Of a stretch of DNA of 64,000 nucleotides, positions 45,856-59,889 are shown one piece after another. Below the pieces are notes generated by a model that worked only from the letters and a program-made list of their open reading frames with translations, made no database searches and was not told the DNA's origin. Both the position numbers and the translations under genes were made by a program. The number at the start of each line of letters is the position of its first letter. Position 1 is the stretch's first letter. Source of the DNA: a virus; the IMG/VR virus record IMGVR_UViG_3300042860_003408, positions 21,866 through 85,865 of that record. The stretch is one strand, 5' to 3'.

Positions 45856-46854
45856 TTAATTTTTTATATCTAATTTTAATTGACTGTCATTTTCGACGGT
45901 CGTTTGTTTTGGTTCTATTAAGTTATTATGCTTTAAATCATTAATGAATCTTAATATTTTAGAGTCTCCTTCCCTATTTTTAGTGAAGTGCAAGTACACC
46001 ATGTCTTTTGTTGGCAGATTCTCGTATCCATACGTCAATATGCCTAAGATTTCCGGTCTATGAATAATTATAACATAGTCGCTTGCTTGAAACACAGCAT
46101 CAGATGAGGCAATATCACTTCTTTGAGGATAATGCAATGAAGGGTTGTTAATCCTTTCTGGCGCTTCAATATTTCTATTCATTTGTGCTATTTGAATAAT
46201 TGACGTTTTGCCAATTTTCTTTAAAGCTATTAATTCCTTTTCTAGTTCCACTATTACAGATCTTTCAGAATCCGAGTTTGAATTTCCCCTTACCAATAAA
46301 GTGTGATCTATAATCACTACAAGCCATTTATCTTTGGCTATTGTTTTTTGGAAAAATTCTATTGTAGCTTTTATTTCGTTTACAGTTCCGGGATTATCCA
46401 CATAATATACTGGATAGTCCTTTATTGTTCGAGCCTTTGATTCTATCTCGCTAAATTCATCGTCGGATATAGCTCCTTTATCCGATGCCGAGTACAACTC
46501 AGAAGTAGTTTTTCTTAATTTATAAGAGAGTTTTCTACCGATTTGCTTAGCTGAAATCATTTCAAAGCTAAAGCTTAAAACAACAACTGCTTCATCTTTA
46601 TTTAAATCTATAATGTCTGTTTCTAATGTATTTACAAATGATGATTTACCGCTTCCAGATATACCTGCTATAGTATATACTGCATTTGGTTCAATTCCGC
46701 CCATTGCTAGCTTATTGAATTTATCCCATCTGGTTCGCAATGATCTTACAATAAATCTTCTTCTGTCATTAATGTATTTTACTATATCACTCGTAGCACT
46801 TGATATGTGCTTGAATTCAAGTATTTTTGGTTGGTTAAACAACTTCGGTTCCAT
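45856..46854 (-). CDS. dnaB: DnaB-family replicative helicase (motor domain)
   Basis: GISGSGKS, FSFEM, IIDH, AQMNRNIE, DAVFQASD and HFTKNREG motifs. Confidence 0.9.
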   Translation of the reverse strand: MEPKLFNQPKILEFKHISSATSDIVKYINDRRRFIVRSLRTRWDKFNKLAMGGIEPNAVYTIAGISGSGKSSFVNTLETDIIDLNKDEAVVVLSFSFEMISAKQIGRKLSYKLRKTTSELYSASDKGAISDDEFSEIESKARTIKDYPVYYVDNPGTVNEIKATIEFFQKTIAKDKWLVVIIDHTLLVRGNSNSDSERSVIVELEKELIALKKIGKTSIIQIAQMNRNIEAPERINNPSLHYPQRSDIASSDAVFQASDYVIIIHRPEILGILTYGYENLPTKDMVYLHFTKNREGDSKILRFINDLKHNNLIEPKQTTVENDSQLKLDIKN

Positions 46855-47401
46855 AGGAAATTGTTTTTGGCTCGTCTGAATAAATAATAGCTTTGGATTT
46901 TTCCAAATAAACTAAATATTCTTCTGAGGTTAACCATTTATACATTCTTTTCATATAACTCATTTTGTTTGAAGCTCTTTTTTCTGCTAGCTCAGCCTTT
47001 AGGGCTGTCATCACTTCGTTGTGCTTAGTTTCGCTTTTGCCTACTAATTTATTATAGACAACACGTGCTCTATTTACATCGCTTCTTAAGTAATCTCTAG
47101 ATCCGTCTGTTCGAATCGAGTATACTGGGTATGAGTCGTAAAATTCACTGAAAAAATCTTTTGTTCCGATGGCCTTTTCCATTTCTGGAGTCAATTTTAG
47201 TCTTGATAAGGTTGGAGTGAATAAAGAATCTTTTGTAAATATGTTTAAGCTAATTAGTTTATCAATATCTGAACCACTTATGTTTAGTGTTTCTTTTATC
47301 GGTGCGATATTAATTTTATCGATAACTAGCCTAATTAATAGAAACTGGTTGATTGTTAATTTGAGGCGTTTAGCCTCCAGCAAATCTAGTTCTACCAGCA
47401 T
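46835..47401 (-). CDS. Putative replication initiator / helicase-loader-like protein
   Basis: FSEFYDSYP...YMK...KWL..E.Y motif typical of phage initiator C-terminal domains; overlaps dnaB. Confidence 0.55.
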   Translation of the reverse strand: MLVELDLLEAKRLKLTINQFLLIRLVIDKINIAPIKETLNISGSDIDKLISLNIFTKDSLFTPTLSRLKLTPEMEKAIGTKDFFSEFYDSYPVYSIRTDGSRDYLRSDVNRARVVYNKLVGKSETKHNEVMTALKAELAEKRASNKMSYMKRMYKWLTSEEYLVYLEKSKAIIYSDEPKTISYGTEVV

Positions 47402-49136: not shown

Positions 49137-49622
49137 CTATTCCTCGTTTTCGATAATGACAAGGTGATTGCCATTATGAATTCTATCAGCAATGATTTCA
49201 GCGAAGCTTAATCCTTTCTGATATCTAAAAATTCGGGACTTTCCTCCCTTTTTGTCTTTTATCCTAAGATTTACCTCATCCTCACCGTCGTCTGGTAATT
49301 CTGGGTCTTCGTCGCTTAAATAAGCTGAGAATAAAAGACGGATGACCGAATTTCGGTCGTTTGTGGCAAATAATACTGCTATTGATTTAGCGCAAAGACT
49401 AGAAGCATATACCAAATCTTTCTTTTCAACATCGAGTTTTGCCAAGATGTCTTGTACCACAGTAAGGAAATCCTTACGTGGTTGAGTTAGATTTAGTATT
49501 TTAATACGGCTAGTAGCCATTATTATGCTTCCATCGTCAAGAACAAGTACTTTGCTATCGTATACCGACAACTCCCCTATGAGGATTGTCAGCAATGCTT
49601 TTTCTACTTCTCCTAGCTTCAT
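49137..49622 (-). CDS. Hypothetical protein
   Basis: 161-aa ORF preceded by AGGAG. Confidence 0.7.
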   Translation of the reverse strand: MKLGEVEKALLTILIGELSVYDSKVLVLDDGSIIMATSRIKILNLTQPRKDFLTVVQDILAKLDVEKKDLVYASSLCAKSIAVLFATNDRNSVIRLLFSAYLSDEDPELPDDGEDEVNLRIKDKKGGKSRIFRYQKGLSFAEIIADRIHNGNHLVIIENEE

Positions 49623-49642
49623 GTCGACTCCTTTCTACGAGA

Positions 49643-50134
49643 TTACTCGTTTTCAGACTCGAATTGAGCTGCGGCCCGGTTGTTTGCTTCTTTTGCTGCT
49701 TTCAAGGCTGCAATTTGAGCGTCAACATCTTCGCGAATAATTGTCAAACGTACGATTTCTCCATCGTTTGCAGAATTTGCGATTTCGTTAGCTACAACGT
49801 AGTTGCCGAAAATATTACGAACTCCATCAGTCTCACCTTCGTATTGTGAAGATTTTTTGATGATTGACTCGATCTGTTGATCGTTTAGCTTCAATGGAGC
49901 GTTTGCATCTCCGTTAATTGCTGTGACCCGGATACCTCCAGTGAGGTCCAACTCGCGAATAGACTTAACGCGAACAGATTCAATTGTTGTAAGAACTGCT
50001 GGTTTAGCAATACGAACATCTTCTGATTTATTTTTGTGGTTGTCATCCACATCTACGGTTTTAAACGTGTGTAAGTGCTGGCCATAAAATTGACCGATTA
50101 ATACTTTTGGACTTACTTTTTTATTTGGGTGCAT
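49643..50134 (-). CDS. Hypothetical protein
   Basis: 163-aa ORF preceded by AGGAGG; CGT/CGC Arg codons. Confidence 0.75.
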   Translation of the reverse strand: MHPNKKVSPKVLIGQFYGQHLHTFKTVDVDDNHKNKSEDVRIAKPAVLTTIESVRVKSIRELDLTGGIRVTAINGDANAPLKLNDQQIESIIKKSSQYEGETDGVRNIFGNYVVANEIANSANDGEIVRLTIIREDVDAQIAALKAAKEANNRAAAQFESENE

Positions 50135-50471
50135 TTTTACCTCCTTTTTTAAAATTGATTTTTACTTGTTTTGATAACTTTTATTCCCAATGGTGCGCCT
50201 GAAAGGATTACATAACTCAAGGGAATCCATTTATAGGGTAAAAATATTTTTCCCAGACTCCTTCAATGCTAGTTGTTCCACACGGTACTAGACCCTGCAT
50301 TGGCACACCTAAGGTACTTAATATTTTTAAAGAAAATAGTCACGTTAATTACGATAACGTACAGGATCTTCACCTGCTCCGGATAACTTATATACTTACT
50401 CTGCAATGCTGGAGTGCATCGTTTTCGGTATAGCCATAGCCACTCAGACAATATTTATATGTAAATGCGAA

Positions 50472-50566
50472 ATAAGGCCATTTAGAGGCTCATACAGACA
50501 CTTTCTTGCAGGAAATGTAGTTCTGTACTACTCCAAAATCAGGATGGCTTAAAACGCCTTAAAATA
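50472..50566 (-). repeat. Dispersed phased element E6 (non-coding copy)
   Basis: Minus strand TATTTTAAGGCGTTTTAAGCC ... GAAAGTGTCTGTATGAGCCTCTAAATGGCCTTAT. Confidence 0.6.
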
Positions 50567-51943
50567 CGTTGTTGCTTTTATATACATATATGCAAATTTG
50601 AGATTTCTTCAACATTTGCCTCTATATCTCGGCATCGCGGGGAAATATGGTTGGGATAGAAGTATTGCAATGGCTAGTTGCCTGCGTTCTATAGCATTTT
50701 TTCTCGGATTTGTCCCGAGCCAGTACCATAATAAAGGAATGTATATAGGAATGTTTCCTGTTTGGAAATTGCCTAAATCATAATTGATCTTATAGCGACT
50801 CTCATCTAGTTCCTTCTATTCTAATGTGATAGGGTGTCCTAAGTCTTGTAGTGCCCCTTGAAGTGCACGCATCAATGGATTTGATTCCATCTAGATCTAT
50901 TGTTTTCTATCGGGCCAGCTGACCGATAATTTTAATTGCGCTGGTATGTAGACTACTATCGTGTGACTACTTTTATTACATCAGGCAAGGATTACTCGCA
51001 AAGGCTATGAATTCACTTTTACTTTCATTGGTGTACCGCCGCTCCTTTGGACAGATTGGTAGGCTTGCTTTCATGTGTTCTGCTTGGCTTGCAGTACCTT
51101 ATGTATTCGGTAGTTGGTCCAAGGATTCACGACTCGTAATATTGAATTCAATTTATGGTTTTTTACAGTGTTTGACCATCCACTGACTTATTTTCTGCGT
51201 ATTGATTGCAGGACTCATACTTACCGAGACAGGGTAGTACTACGAAATTCAAATAAGATTTGCTTGATGTCTGGCTAGGACATCTGACGCTATACACGCT
51301 ATAGCAGCGGGGATTTTTTTTCTCGTCCCTAGAGTAACAATTTCGTTATGCATATTTTAGCCTGCAGGACGGCATTAACTGTTTCCATGATTGTTTCCGT
51401 GTTATAAATCAGTTAAACTCGAACACGTCGATTGCGCTAAGACCATTCAGGGGGTCACGTATTATTCCAAATACTACTAGCCGTCTCAGTTTTCTATATT
51501 TTACCCTCTATAGATTGTGCACACTTGACTGTGCGTGTAATTACATTCGCTACTTACTCCGAAGATTTCACTACTAGTGCATACAATTTTTCTGTATTTT
51601 TCAGCGCGGTTCCAAAGCCTACAACTGAATATTATGTCATTATTTTAGCTGACTTGCATTACCGCATAAATTCGCATCTCTCCATCTAAGGATCAGGGTG
51701 TTTTACGGACGTCTTCCCCTCGGTTTTGTTTAAAATTCTTTTTACCCGGCTTTTCCCTCTCAACTACTTGCGTTCATTGCATGGTTAAATCCAACTCCTG
51801 TTTTTTATCGACCTTTAAACTAGTTCGCCTGCTTGTTATTTCACTTGGCTCGTGACTGCTCCATGTCGCTGAACTCGCGCATTACTAATAATAAAATGAC
51901 ACCAAAGTGCCCGTGTCTTCCATTTCCACCATCCCTACTTCGC

Positions 51944-52019
51944 ATTCAGGACTGAGATTCGAACTCAGAAATATTATTTCATAACGATTTTTTGTCTAAT
52001 AGGCAGATTTATTCCTACT
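51944..52019 (-). ncRNA. tRNA-like element TL4
   Basis: Perfect T-arm CTGAG-TTCGAAT-CTCAG, TAGGA/TCCTG acceptor pairs, GA-CAAAAAA-TC loop. Confidence 0.5.
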
Positions 52020-52327
52020 GTGCTGCTCGCAACCCCATGTTGCGCATTGCTTCGGATCCTAACTTAAACTTTAATTGTTAATATGTATTTGATTACACTC
52101 TATTTAGTATTGCAGTCCATCTCATACTGCGGTCTTTAAGCCAATTTTGCCGATTGGTTTTAGGAATACTGTTCGACAAGCTTTTGTTCTTGTCTAGCCC
52201 AATTACATTTCTGCAATCTTATCAGTAGTTTTATCGTCCACTACAGCTTAGCGATGACGCGCATGTTAACCGTTTTATATAGCGCCATGCATTGGCTGCG
52301 CTCTCCTATTTTTCAACATAGGATAAT

Positions 52328-52687
52328 TTAGTTATCTTTTGTTTCAACAAGGACAAATTGTCCGTCATCTAACTTAAGATACATGTTTCCGTTATCTACA
52401 GGGATATATCCATCTTCTACATCAGAAGAACTGATATAGTCAATATTATTGAACGAGTCTTTATAACCGTCCAATTTCCTGTAAAGTTCAAATATTCTTG
52501 ATTTTGCTAATTTTATTTTTATAGCCAAGCTATCAATTGCCTTTTTCATGTTGACTGAAACCTCTTCTTCTTTAATGTAGGTAATTTCTACTTGATAGAG
52601 TGTTTCCAACTGGCCTCTTACGTATATATACGGTTTAATTCGCTTAGAAATACTAAGCATAGAATTTACAATTTCTATGTTTGTCAT
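52328..52687 (-). CDS. Hypothetical protein
   Basis: 119-aa ORF. Confidence 0.7.
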   Translation of the reverse strand: MTNIEIVNSMLSISKRIKPYIYVRGQLETLYQVEITYIKEEEVSVNMKKAIDSLAIKIKLAKSRIFELYRKLDGYKDSFNNIDYISSSDVEDGYIPVDNGNMYLKLDDGQFVLVETKDN

Positions 52688-52698
52688 ATTCTTGTATT

Positions 52699-53103
52699 TT
52701 ATATTAGCATTATCACTTCTGAAATATCCATCCCAGGCGCTACATCGAGCAATACTATCGGAACTGGCAATTCTTCAATTTGAGCAACTAATTGCTCTTC
52801 ATCTCCAGTGTCACTGTCTACGCATTTTTCATTATGCGTAATATTGTCAGCTACTACTGTTAACTCTCGAAGTTCAACAGGACCAAACTCTTCTACCACT
52901 GGCATTTCCTCCTCCAAAACAACAGGAGATTCTGGCATGTCAATTAGTAGTTTTTGTTGAAATACAATTGATTTCTCAATTATTTTTCCCTCTTTGTATG
53001 CAAAGACTTCTTTTTCAGGCTTACTTGCACCTATTCCTACTGTCAACCCAAACGAGAACGACATGAAGAATAATATGGTACTAATTATACCCTTTTTCTT
53101 CAT
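52699..53103 (-). CDS. Hypothetical protein with N-terminal signal/membrane anchor and acidic tail
   Basis: MKKKGIISTILFFMSFSFGLTVG followed by an E-rich region. Confidence 0.65.
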   Translation of the reverse strand: MKKKGIISTILFFMSFSFGLTVGIGASKPEKEVFAYKEGKIIEKSIVFQQKLLIDMPESPVVLEEEMPVVEEFGPVELRELTVVADNITHNEKCVDSDTGDEEQLVAQIEELPVPIVLLDVAPGMDISEVIMLI

Positions 53104-53953
53104 AATCTTTTCGTTTTAAAAGTTCATTTCGTTTTAACGGAGAGCAGTGCTTTATAATCGAATCGATTCTTCTGCATACTGCTGTTCTATCACTCAAACC
53201 TTCCACCTCGCTTATAAAACTAATAGTTTTAGGGTCGTTTATGTAATAGTTTTTCATTGAAGACACTTTTGATAGAGTATCAACCACCATCATAGGGCGA
53301 CCTTCTTTTTCAAGAGGCGTTCTTCTGTTGATAGAATCATTCATAATCAAAGCAACATCCATATCGCTCCACGATTTTAAATGCTTCTTAATTGACAAAA
53401 ATGCTTTTGGTGCGCCATCATTCAATAGCGTATTTACAATGTATCTATCCCATAACTCAAATGGTTCATGGTTTTTGTACGCTTCGCGGATCGCTATCCA
53501 CGCTTTTGCATTTGGTAAAGCAGATTTATTCATTGAATTGAATATCTCCACTGCCTCTGCAATGTTTTTTGTAAACGAATGTGACATCAAAAAATCAAGC
53601 TGCTTCTTTTCAGGGTATTGCTTGTAGTTATCTTTTGTTACACGTTCATTAATTGTTTCCACCGGGGTAAACTCAATTACTTGTTGAGCTCCCATTGTTA
53701 TCGCTCTCATGCGATCTGGACCTACGACAAGAGATAATAAATCCTTGTCTATTTCAGACGGCGCCAATGCTTTCGCAATATTTTCAACATTGTTTCCAAT
53801 AGTGAATTGTAAGGCAGCCGACAATACTAGATATACTGCGTCCATTTGTTTTTCTAGAAAATCCTTTTCTTTGGAGCTTCTAGCTTTCAAAAAACGTTTC
53901 TCTAGTAATGAATGAAATTCCAGCATTTCTTTTGCGGTCATTTCAAATTTCAT
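53081..53953 (-). CDS. Hypothetical protein
   Basis: 290-aa ORF with AGGAGG upstream. Confidence 0.75.
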   Translation of the reverse strand: MKFEMTAKEMLEFHSLLEKRFLKARSSKEKDFLEKQMDAVYLVLSAALQFTIGNNVENIAKALAPSEIDKDLLSLVVGPDRMRAITMGAQQVIEFTPVETINERVTKDNYKQYPEKKQLDFLMSHSFTKNIAEAVEIFNSMNKSALPNAKAWIAIREAYKNHEPFELWDRYIVNTLLNDGAPKAFLSIKKHLKSWSDMDVALIMNDSINRRTPLEKEGRPMMVVDTLSKVSSMKNYYINDPKTISFISEVEGLSDRTAVCRRIDSIIKHCSPLKRNELLKRKDYEEKGYN

Positions 53954-54025: not shown

Positions 54026-54406
54026 TTAGCTAGAATTTATGTCTATCAGATCAGATCTTGCTGCGTGCTCGCCTGGTGGCGCTTTTGCATTAAGATTAAT
54101 CACTTGCGACTTATCATGACTTCTTGAAACGAAAGTCATGGTAAGCATAGAGTGTCTGTTTGAATAGGACTCCACTTTCGTATTTGTCTGCAACTTCACT
54201 GAGACTGCAGTATACTTAATGGTATTCTCGGGCAAGACAACATCTAAATTAGTTACTAAGGCAGATATAGCTAGTACATCTTTCTTCAGCTCTGCTAGTT
54301 TAACTTCATCAGAAGCTATTATTGCAGAACTATAACCAACCGCGAAAAAGCTAAGGAGATACACTAGTCTTACTAGCATTTCCCATGTTTGATACATCTT
54401 CTTCAT
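54026..54406 (-). CDS. Hypothetical membrane-anchored protein
   Basis: N-terminal hydrophobic segment; overlaps the 3' end of the sigma-factor gene. Confidence 0.6.
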   Translation of the reverse strand: MKKMYQTWEMLVRLVYLLSFFAVGYSSAIIASDEVKLAELKKDVLAISALVTNLDVVLPENTIKYTAVSVKLQTNTKVESYSNRHSMLTMTFVSRSHDKSQVINLNAKAPPGEHAARSDLIDINSS

Positions 54407-54956
54407 CTTTTTTGAAATTGTTGATTAGTTTTTTTCTTTGACGACTTATTGTCGCTTTTACAGTTCCAATGGAAACCTTTAACTCATCTGCAATTTGCTG
54501 ATAAGTATATTCTTTTCCATATCGAAGGTCCATAATACGCCTAGAAGACTCTGGCATATCATCAATAATCTCCTCTATCGAGGATCTTGATTGTTTATTA
54601 ATAAGGTCTTTTTCAGGATTAGAGTTATCGGTGTAAATAACCTCGAATGTCTCATCATCGTCAATACTTATATTGCTATTCTCAAGAGCGCCACTCCTGA
54701 TTTTATCAATAATCACATTGTTTGTAACCTTTTTAACCCACATCTCGAACGAAATATCCTTTGAATATTTATGAATATTTCTGAAAATTTTAGCTATTAT
54801 TTCAGACGAAATATCTTCTTCATCTTCATTGTTTTTAAATACATTTCGCACTAATCGCCTTACAACTGGCTCGTATTCTTTGTATAAAACTAAAAATGCT
54901 TTCTGATTGTTTGATTTTGCCAAGTCGACAAATTCTTTTGTTTCTTCTTTTGTCAT
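54351..54956 (-). CDS. ECF-type sigma-70 family factor
   Basis: Region 2 AFLVLYKEY...EDISSEI..KIFRNI..Y...FEMWVKKVTNNVIIDKIR; region 4 HTH YTYQQIADELKVSIGTVKATISR. Confidence 0.88.
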   Translation of the reverse strand: MTKEETKEFVDLAKSNNQKAFLVLYKEYEPVVRRLVRNVFKNNEDEEDISSEIIAKIFRNIHKYSKDISFEMWVKKVTNNVIIDKIRSGALENSNISIDDDETFEVIYTDNSNPEKDLINKQSRSSIEEIIDDMPESSRRIMDLRYGKEYTYQQIADELKVSIGTVKATISRQRKKLINNFKKDEEDVSNMGNASKTSVSP

Positions 54957-58569: not shown

Positions 58570-58771
58570 TGGGGATAGCCAGAGTCGAACTAGCTATTTT
58601 AATCTTCTTTAATGCCTATATCTACAATTGCTTTTCGAAATCCAATTATGTTTATTTGCATTCAGGTGAGATTACGTGATTAGGGTATGCCTAGTCTTGC
58701 AAGTCGGCGAACAGTTATCATCTGTTCTCGGCCTTAGGCATAGATTTCCCCATCCATTTCACTCTATCCCC
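58570..58771 (-). ncRNA. tRNA-like element TL5 with large structured insertion
   Basis: Perfect acceptor GGGGATA/TATCCCC-A, T-arm GCTAG-TTCGACT-CTGGC and D-loop-like AAATGGA; long interior with TATGCCTA/TAGGCATA and GAACAG/CTGTTC stems. Confidence 0.65.
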
Positions 58772-58779
58772 GTATTTTG

Positions 58780-58861
58780 TGCCACTTTAGAGATTCGAAC
58801 TCATCAGTCCATTTCTGGTTTCCGGTTCCTTATTAGGGCTATCATCCCAATAAGTAGTGGC
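58780..58861 (-). ncRNA. tRNA-like element TL6
   Basis: GCCACT/AGTGGC-A acceptor, GAG-TTCGAAT-CTC T-arm, CTTATTGGG/CCCTAATAAG hairpin in place of the D-arm. Confidence 0.55.
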
Positions 58862-59241
58862 GTTTGGTTAAAGCAATGAAGACTAATTTACTATCACCTA
58901 TCATTAATAGAAGATTAAGATTTGCGCTTGCATCATTGCTTTAATTTTTGACTCTTATTTGCAGTTAGTATCATACTGTATAAGTCAATTTCAGTCCTTG
59001 CAGTGGAATAAATATTTGTACGTAGTTTTCTCCACATGGGAGGACGTGGCTCGATTAGTATTACGATTGCAATCTCTACAAACTATTTCACGCTCTTTTT
59101 ACATATTTACATCTAACAAACTAATCACCTGCATGTGATTGATAATTATATCACTAAGCTACATTCACACTTAAGTGAAGAGGCTATTCTTAGATTTTTC
59201 GTCCTTAATTATCTATTGCTTCAATCTGAAATTGATTTATT

Positions 59242-59658: not shown

Positions 59659-59817
59659 CTTTTTGTTTTTGTTTGGTTTTATTTTAAAAAGCGAGACAGA
59701 GTGAAAAGTGGTTTCACACCACTATCTGTCTCGCTAAAAACTATAAATATTCTTGCAAATATTGATTTTGCTCATTTGTAGCCCGCGCGGCAATCTTTGA
59801 ATATTTATGTTTTATTG

Positions 59818-59889
59818 TAGCCCCACGAGGAATCGAACCCCGCTTCTTAGACTGAAGGTCTATTGTCCTAACCGATAGACGATAGGGCC
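59818..59889 (-). tRNA. tRNA-Glu(TTC), atypical anticodon loop, no encoded CCA
   Basis: GGCCCTA-TC-GTCT-ATCGGTTA-GGAC-A-ATAGA-CCTTCAG-TCTAA-GAAG-CGGGG-TTCGATT-CCTCG-TGGGGCT-A; Glu-type D-arm. Confidence 0.75.

Follow-up and report, generated by a model that had tools for sequence, protein, structure and literature searches.

Why does a phage genome that is otherwise tightly packed with genes contain 2.2 kb in which no gene can be read, and might this DNA encode an RNA? The question is raised by positions 50135–52327 of a 64,000-nucleotide (nt) stretch of viral DNA, hereafter the window, which corresponds to bases 21866–85865 of an 85.9-kb crAss-like phage record in IMG/VR (IMGVR_UViG_3300042860_003408; 83% complete according to CheckV). 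An earlier note, made from the letters alone, had proposed one giant non-coding RNA or an array of small RNAs at this locus. Comparison with Suoliviridae phages places the region in a slot where these relatives carry a conserved element of similar size, and we consider it about evenly probable that it represents the long non-coding RNA locus of a freshwater lineage, be it an extremely diverged orthologue of the relatives' element or a replacement for it. This reading is based on the region being non-coding, on the slot and size that it shares with the relatives' element, on the homology of the genes that anchor the slot, and on the covariation within a block of that element.

A non-coding stretch in a gene-dense genome

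The earlier note had seen no credible open reading frame (ORF) in the region, and this holds. The longest ORFs comprise 61, 60 and 59 amino acids (aa). When codon usage is scored with the phage's own genes as training set, the region receives –0.23 to –0.56 bits per codon, which equals the level of the non-coding strand, as compared to ~0 for the flanking genes. Searching all six frames with stop codons replaced by X retrieved no Pfam or PHROG family at E ≤ 0.1, the sole listing being DUF5362 at E = 0.13.

As some crAss-like phages reassign stop codons, a protein gene might be concealed by such a reassignment, or else by frameshifts or introns. We regard this explanation as close to refuted. 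Retranslation in other codes, a check that the earlier note had itself put forward, returned no long frame: the longest stop-to-stop frames amounted to 123 aa with TAG read as glutamine, 134 aa in table 4 and 179 aa with TAA read as glutamine, and all other genes of the window, one of 6070 aa among them, read in table 11. The six-frame read-through without a family, the codon score at non-coding level and the lack of any match to the intron models searched (see below) argue against a cryptic gene as well.

ORFs of ≥70 aa are lacking over 600 nt or more at only two places in the window, namely in the region itself and at 58613–59241; the latter lies near a hairpin resembling a tRNA T-arm (58594) and a tRNA-Glu gene (59817–59889). 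Given the results for ORFs, genetic codes, protein families, codon score and ORF-free stretches, the region is genuinely free of coding sequence and stands out in this genome. Its guanine-plus-cytosine (GC) content was said to exceed that of the flanks, which is correct with respect to the upstream flank (0.37–0.42 vs. 0.31) and incorrect with respect to the two downstream genes (49137–50134), whose content of 0.38–0.42 is at the same level.

No match to known RNA families

Rfam, the first check suggested for the region, returned no match at E ≤ 10 between 49900 and 52600, and at gathering score the whole window yielded two tRNA matches only, both outside the region. The models that failed to match include those of GOLLD, ROOL, OLE, HEARO, raiA, group I and II introns, tRNA and transfer-messenger RNA (tmRNA). 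That the earlier note recognized no group I or II intron core is thus corroborated. GOLLD and ROOL, named in that note as examples of large phage RNAs, matched neither the region at this threshold nor the window at gathering score.

A tRNA-like element had also been reported near the upstream end. There is indeed a hairpin at 51952–51968 that looks like a T-arm; ARAGORN called no tRNA or tmRNA in the region, and neither did Rfam at E ≤ 10.

At the nucleotide level, blastn at a distant setting found no match to the region among 50,697 phage records. Locus searches in viral contigs with the 163-aa and 119-aa proteins encoded on either side and with the sigma factor identified no relative, nor did an alignment of the 163-aa protein retrieve one from viral, metagenome or genome contigs. 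A DNA pattern combining the T-arm loop with the GCGAAGTAGGG motif had zero matches in viral contigs. Five homologues of the 163-aa protein (71–91% identity) are present in ENA and Logan assemblies, indicating that closer relatives of this phage exist. The most similar one (91%) is encoded on a contig of 95 kb, and the other four are 71–80% identical.

The same slot in Suoliviridae phages

Using the DnaB-like helicase as query, we identified 90 related IMG/VR loci at 50–55% identity, and matches of 49–65% in GenBank Suoliviridae genomes. All 23 IMG/VR loci whose upstream flank extends over 9.3 kb or more possess an ORF-poor, gene-strand stretch of ~2.1 kb upstream of DnaB. The same gene order—sigma factor, three to four small genes, the gap, further genes, a ScpB-like gene and DnaB—recurs in all six GenBank records examined (members of the Oafi-, Uncou-, Louti- and Boorivirinae), with gap lengths of 2162 (cr124_1), 1920 (cr118_1), 2125 (cr53_1), 2481 (cr1_1), 2147 (cr4_1) and 2514 nt (cr50_1). 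In five of the six, the annotation places a DNA polymerase ahead of the ScpB-like gene (the cr124_1 locus ends short of this stretch), and two of them have an annotated tmRNA further upstream. None of these records annotates an RNA gene over the gap, and four annotate nothing at all there.

The lake-water phage follows this arrangement. Its sigma-factor gene is succeeded by four small genes, the 2193-nt gap, four genes, a 188-aa gene and DnaB; in other words, the region stands after the sigma factor and small genes, before a block ending in DnaB and on the gene strand, and its length falls within the range of 1920–2514 nt observed in the relatives. The anchors are homologous: the sigma factor is 25% identical to that of cr124_1 over 170 aa (E = 4e-20), the 188-aa protein 28–36% identical to its counterparts, and DnaB 50–55% identical in 17 of 17 compared loci. 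The 143-aa protein of the third gene after the gap, with 27% identity to locus L040:4584–5135, constitutes a weaker anchor. By DnaB, this phage is 53–60% identical to each subfamily, as compared to 52–61% for the subfamilies among themselves.

Conservation and covariation in the relatives' element

The relatives' gaps are homologous to one another: a profile nhmmer search joined 26 loci at E-values from 1e-43 to 1e-290, and mean nucleotide identity in 22 sequences was 0.59. The proteins flanking them are 26–44% identical, bar one match of 66% at a locus holding only part of the gene. Judged by these comparisons, the gap is under selection and better conserved than the neighboring genes. It has no Rfam match.

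Block A2, the one block of the element tested with controls, comprises 25 pairs in five helices across 21 sequences, one helix being a hairpin-loop pseudoknot. As many as 92.8% of its cells are paired, compared to 29–40% when partners are slid by one to three columns; 15 pairs, among pairs that include G-U, show changes on both sides, and none of 500 shuffles reached any of the observed measures. Variants of the mid-block pseudoknot read AGUC/GACU, AGCG/CGCU, AGCC/GGCU and AGUG/CACU. RNAalifold windows over the whole element, run without a control, yielded 13–44 predicted pairs per 240 columns, 3–27 of them covarying on both sides.

In the Oafivirinae, the element additionally holds a tRNA-like module (L050:1829–1915 and ten other loci, alignment A5), which is made up of two hairpins resembling the D-arm and the anticodon arm of a tRNA (the latter with the loop CCGUAAC or GGUAAAU), a long spacer, and a T-arm whose loop reads UUCGAUU. 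Its stems vary from genome to genome; the D-arm-like and anticodon-arm-like hairpins together have 11 pairs, seven of which retain double changes. Rfam's tRNA model matched the module in none of seven loci, including L050 and L059. A single T-arm look-alike with the UUCGAUU loop and differing stems was present in six of nine Suoliviridae elements scanned. Given the covariation in block A2, the RNAalifold pairs and the tRNA-like module, the relatives' element most likely gives rise to one very large structured RNA or to several RNA domains in a chain.

The conserved 5′ part could be modeled across subfamilies. Of three covariance models—R1 (mid block), R2 (the conserved 5′ domain, 166 positions) and R3 (the tRNA-like module)—R2 matched all 23 IMG/VR loci with enough flank, ten of which had not been used for training, as well as all six GenBank loci, the four untrained ones among the latter (cr118_1, cr1_1, cr4_1 and cr50_1) scoring 40.7–92.9 bits. 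The core motifs of this domain are TCCGAGAAUAUGU and CAAAAGGUAGGAU (L059:1471–3479, L007:1135–3278, L082:4885–7046 and 20 other loci), and a 4-bp helix within it reads AUCC/GGAU in most members and AUGG/CCAU in cr118_1. The element diverges fast even within the family: the gaps of cr118_1 and cr53_1 share no similarity detectable by nhmmer, and the 26-locus Oafivirinae profile covers only 330 nt of the latter and misses the former.

A 2-kb RNA of Crassvirales is not described in the literature that we searched, although supplements may hold one. None of the six words sought occurs in PMC7886860, which does not describe long non-coding regions; the passage found in PMC12386605 concerns only template repeats of a diversity-generating retroelement (DGR).

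Does the region encode a related RNA?

Support for the giant RNA or small-RNA array of the earlier note is thus indirect, coming from the slot that the region shares with a Suoliviridae element containing a covarying block. Several results for the region itself weigh against assigning it an RNA of this kind. The 26-locus nhmmer profile retrieved nothing in the window at E ≤ 10, and the long motifs conserved among the relatives are all missing from the region. The best R2 score in the region was 6.7 bits, and this model matched neither the window nor the whole 85.9-kb record. R1, which is specific to the Oafivirinae (zero of five loci of other subfamilies were found by it), gave chance-level matches only. 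A 17-nt word of the region, next to the T-arm look-alike, is identical to a conserved motif in the Oafivirinae block from which R1 was built; its BLAST E-value of 0.42 means that it may be due to chance. R3 aligned to 50311–50386 with 20 bits (E = 0.0023 over 9 kb or 0.1 over 400 kb), a score that is not significant and no better than those of its matches in other subfamilies.

All four short hairpins named in the earlier note are present, within 52028–52194, and the surrounding 52000–52327 contains six perfect hairpins (stem ≥5, loop 3–10) as opposed to 1.8 ± 1.5 in 200 dinucleotide shuffles, six of which reach that number. The region as a whole has 28 such hairpins, about twice the shuffled number (14.6 ± 3.5; 0 of 200 shuffles reach 28). 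To this extent the claimed density of hairpins is real; however, coding DNA on either side displays an equal excess (27 vs. 16.9 and 30 vs. 16.7), and folding-energy z-scores of the region, averaged over 200-nt windows, are at chance (+0.17 on the plus and –0.10 on the minus strand). The flanks, with means of –1.35 and –2.50, are more structured, and individual windows in flanking coding DNA reach minus-strand values of –8.3 (49335–49534), –4.1 (52335–52534) and –4.5 (52935–53134); coding sequence is hence more foldable here than the non-coding stretch. The relatives' element presents the same picture, with z-scores of about zero (–0.12 and –0.47) that lie below the structure of its coding flanks, where strongly negative values down to –6.1 were likewise noted. 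Since an element with a covarying block also folds no better than chance by this measure, the z-score result for the region says little.

Signals of expression added no support. Sigma-70-type promoter-like and terminator-like sites were as frequent in the region as expected from shuffled sequence, and no TAnnTTTG box of the Bacteroidota type was present in it or within ~2.3 kb of either end. In two metatranscriptome runs (X23 and X24), which hold a small share of the stretch and whose contigs give neither strand nor level, four listed RNA-library contigs overlap the region, at 50843–50993, 51018–51168, 51998–52264 and 52299–52512 (151–267 nt; depth 2.5–3.3). Their depth over the region resembles that over neighboring genes, and DNA carry-over is possible. 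Run X23 also contains a 38-nt contig of depth 33 at 50344–50378, which overlaps the weak R3 match and deviates from the region at five of 35 letters; it could stem from an abundant RNA of a related phage or from an unrelated organism, and taken alone is no evidence.

These findings bear on the possibility that the region is a decayed, non-functional remnant of an RNA gene, a protein gene or a foreign insertion, i.e. a drifting spacer not yet deleted. Such a remnant would explain why the region lacks the 5′ domain found in the relatives (33 of 33 elements), why folding energy is at chance and hairpin density no higher than in the flanks, and why no family signal emerged. Nevertheless, we deem it unlikely: the genome is tightly packed, with the two sizeable ORF-free stretches mentioned above in 64 kb; the length of the region agrees with that of the relatives' element; and that element shares the z-score of about zero despite the covariation in its tested block. 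The occurrence of the sequence in environmental samples argues in the same direction. Of 24 listed sequencing runs holding the stretch, 22 are DNA runs labeled lake-water or freshwater, and 15 runs contain at least half of its sampled words. All sampled words are present in five lake-water runs, possibly including the source sample, and 0.90–0.96 of them in four further runs. The listed DNA contigs show no difference within the stretch, and in the contigs of four runs a single-base difference was observed in the region, in one RNA contig of low depth; parts of the region that these runs leave uncovered carry no weight as evidence.

Alternatively, the region might act at the DNA level, as a replication origin or as a protein-docking or regulatory region upstream of the replication module. 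Its position upstream of the replication genes and on the same strand would fit, and its perfect inverted repeats suit DNA as well as RNA. It moreover contains a putative copy of a dispersed, two-armed palindromic DNA element: a word of 20–24 nt (UUAAGGCGUUUUAAGCC type) at 50545–50569 matches several relatives' loci, at unrelated places. Yet repeats in the region are confined to short two-copy families, with no iterons or larger repeat families, the DNA is richer in G+C rather than in A+T than most of the genome, and no skew turn occurs there. In the syntenic element of the relatives, G-U pairs and the hairpin-loop pseudoknot point to RNA. We therefore rate a DNA-level function as improbable, somewhat more so than decay.

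Another thought is that the ancestral giant RNA has given way, within its slot, to an unrelated RNA or a set of small RNAs; to this we assign a low probability, below that of a DNA element. Slot and size alike in combination with no shared domain would be in keeping with it, as would the T-arm-like hairpins in other minus-strand gaps of the window (48984, 58594 and 42783, the last falling within one of the Rfam tRNA matches) and a terminator-like hairpin at 51898–51911, which could close a first unit of ~430 nt. On the other hand, terminator counts are at chance, and the present data do not separate replacement by an unrelated RNA from extreme divergence of the ancestral one.

A putative model for the locus

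If the region is the RNA locus of this lineage, the slot, lying between the sigma-factor gene block and the replication genes as it would in Suoliviridae-type crAss-like phages generally, would be transcribed from the minus strand, either along with the regulatory genes upstream of it or directly after these. The product may be a single RNA of ~2 kb or a chain of hairpin-rich domains, the T-arm look-alike among them. One could speculate, with little confidence, that this RNA is stable, persists through infection, and binds or decoys RNA-handling proteins of host or phage as replication starts. It is also conceivable, though doubtful, that the slot predates the split between the gut Suoliviridae and the freshwater lineage and now holds a second family of structured RNAs of ~2 kb here, whether diverged or replaced. 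In that case, selection would act on the slot and on the size and architecture of the RNA rather than on its sequence, and very large non-coding RNAs, belonging to several families, would be a general feature of crAss-like phages.

Features of the locus and its surroundings

Coordinates of the region, its neighbors and the features discussed above are compiled in Table 1. In two of the GenBank relatives, genes further along the locus are interrupted: DnaB of cr118_1 is annotated as two coding sequences (CDSs) with a 355-nt gap and its DNA polymerase is also split in two, and in cr53_1 an HNH endonuclease gene is located between two DNA polymerase CDSs. Split genes were noted at L083:12977–14300, L083:7611–9898 and L084:9563–12375. 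The interruptions in cr118_1 and cr53_1 are likely intron or homing-endonuclease insertions.

Table 1. Positions of the candidate locus, its anchors and local sequence features in the window.
Feature	Position	Strand	Details
ORF-free, non-coding stretch, candidate long non-coding RNA locus	50135–52327	– (gene strand)	2193 nt
Upstream neighbor gene	52328–52687	–	119 aa, no known family
Downstream neighbor gene	49643–50134	–	163 aa, no known family
Sigma-70-family factor gene, upstream synteny anchor	54351–54956	–	Pfam Sigma70_r2 and r4
DnaB-like helicase gene, downstream synteny anchor	45856–46854	–	
188-aa gene common to relatives	46835–47401	–	Precedes DnaB
Four short hairpins named in the earlier note	52028–52044, 52112–52130, 52141–52157, 52175–52194	–	Read directly in the sequence
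T-arm look-alike hairpin	51952–51968	–	5-bp stem CUGAG/CUCAG, loop UUCGAAU
17-nt word adjoining the T-arm look-alike	51933–51949	–	Same as conserved motif of the Oafivirinae element (GCGAAGUAGGG core)
Two adjacent hairpins	50311–50386	–	Second with 6-bp stem and UCGUAAU loop; weak R3 match
Putative copy of dispersed two-armed palindromic DNA element	50545–50569 (core)	–	Only the 20–24-nt core seen

Implications

Suoliviridae are among the commonest gut phages, and the function of their ~2-kb element has not been described. If transcribed as one molecule, the element would exceed GOLLD and ROOL in length by far. The lake-water lineage, as distant by DnaB from the subfamilies as these are from each other, has the same slot filled to the same size with unrecognizable sequence. 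This sets a limit for any family model, in that the 5′ domain is not universal, and offers a natural comparison for what is being selected: sequence, fold, length, or mere transcription through the slot. Should the stretch be inert here, it would mark a lineage that has lost the RNA, which would be equally useful for working out function.

Comparison with known systems

GOLLD and ROOL, large and ornate RNAs of phages and prophages that are encoded near tRNA-like elements, resemble the present locus in being large, phage-borne and close to such elements. They differ from it in family, as no match was obtained, and in length, the region being two to three times longer.

Within this order, we came across a single experimental precedent for abundant non-coding RNA, provided by the Cellulophaga crAss-like phage phi14:2. 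As reported (bioRxiv 10.1101/2020.03.07.982082), two long intergenic regions of this phage, at the g004–g005 and g005–g006 junctions, are transcribed above most genes, and the transcripts are present from the earliest time point and persist. The loci of the two crAss-like phages are alike in being long and intergenic, taken in the gene direction; their position in the genome may differ.

The closest parallel is the Suoliviridae element. The two differ in sequence, without similarity by profile or covariance model and with the 5′ domain missing from the lake-water phage, and in habitat, which is lake water in one case and the animal gut in the other. They agree in position, with the sigma-factor block on one side and the replication genes on the other, in strand, in size and in the lack of an ORF, in folding z-scores of about zero next to coding flanks with more negative values, and in a single T-arm look-alike.

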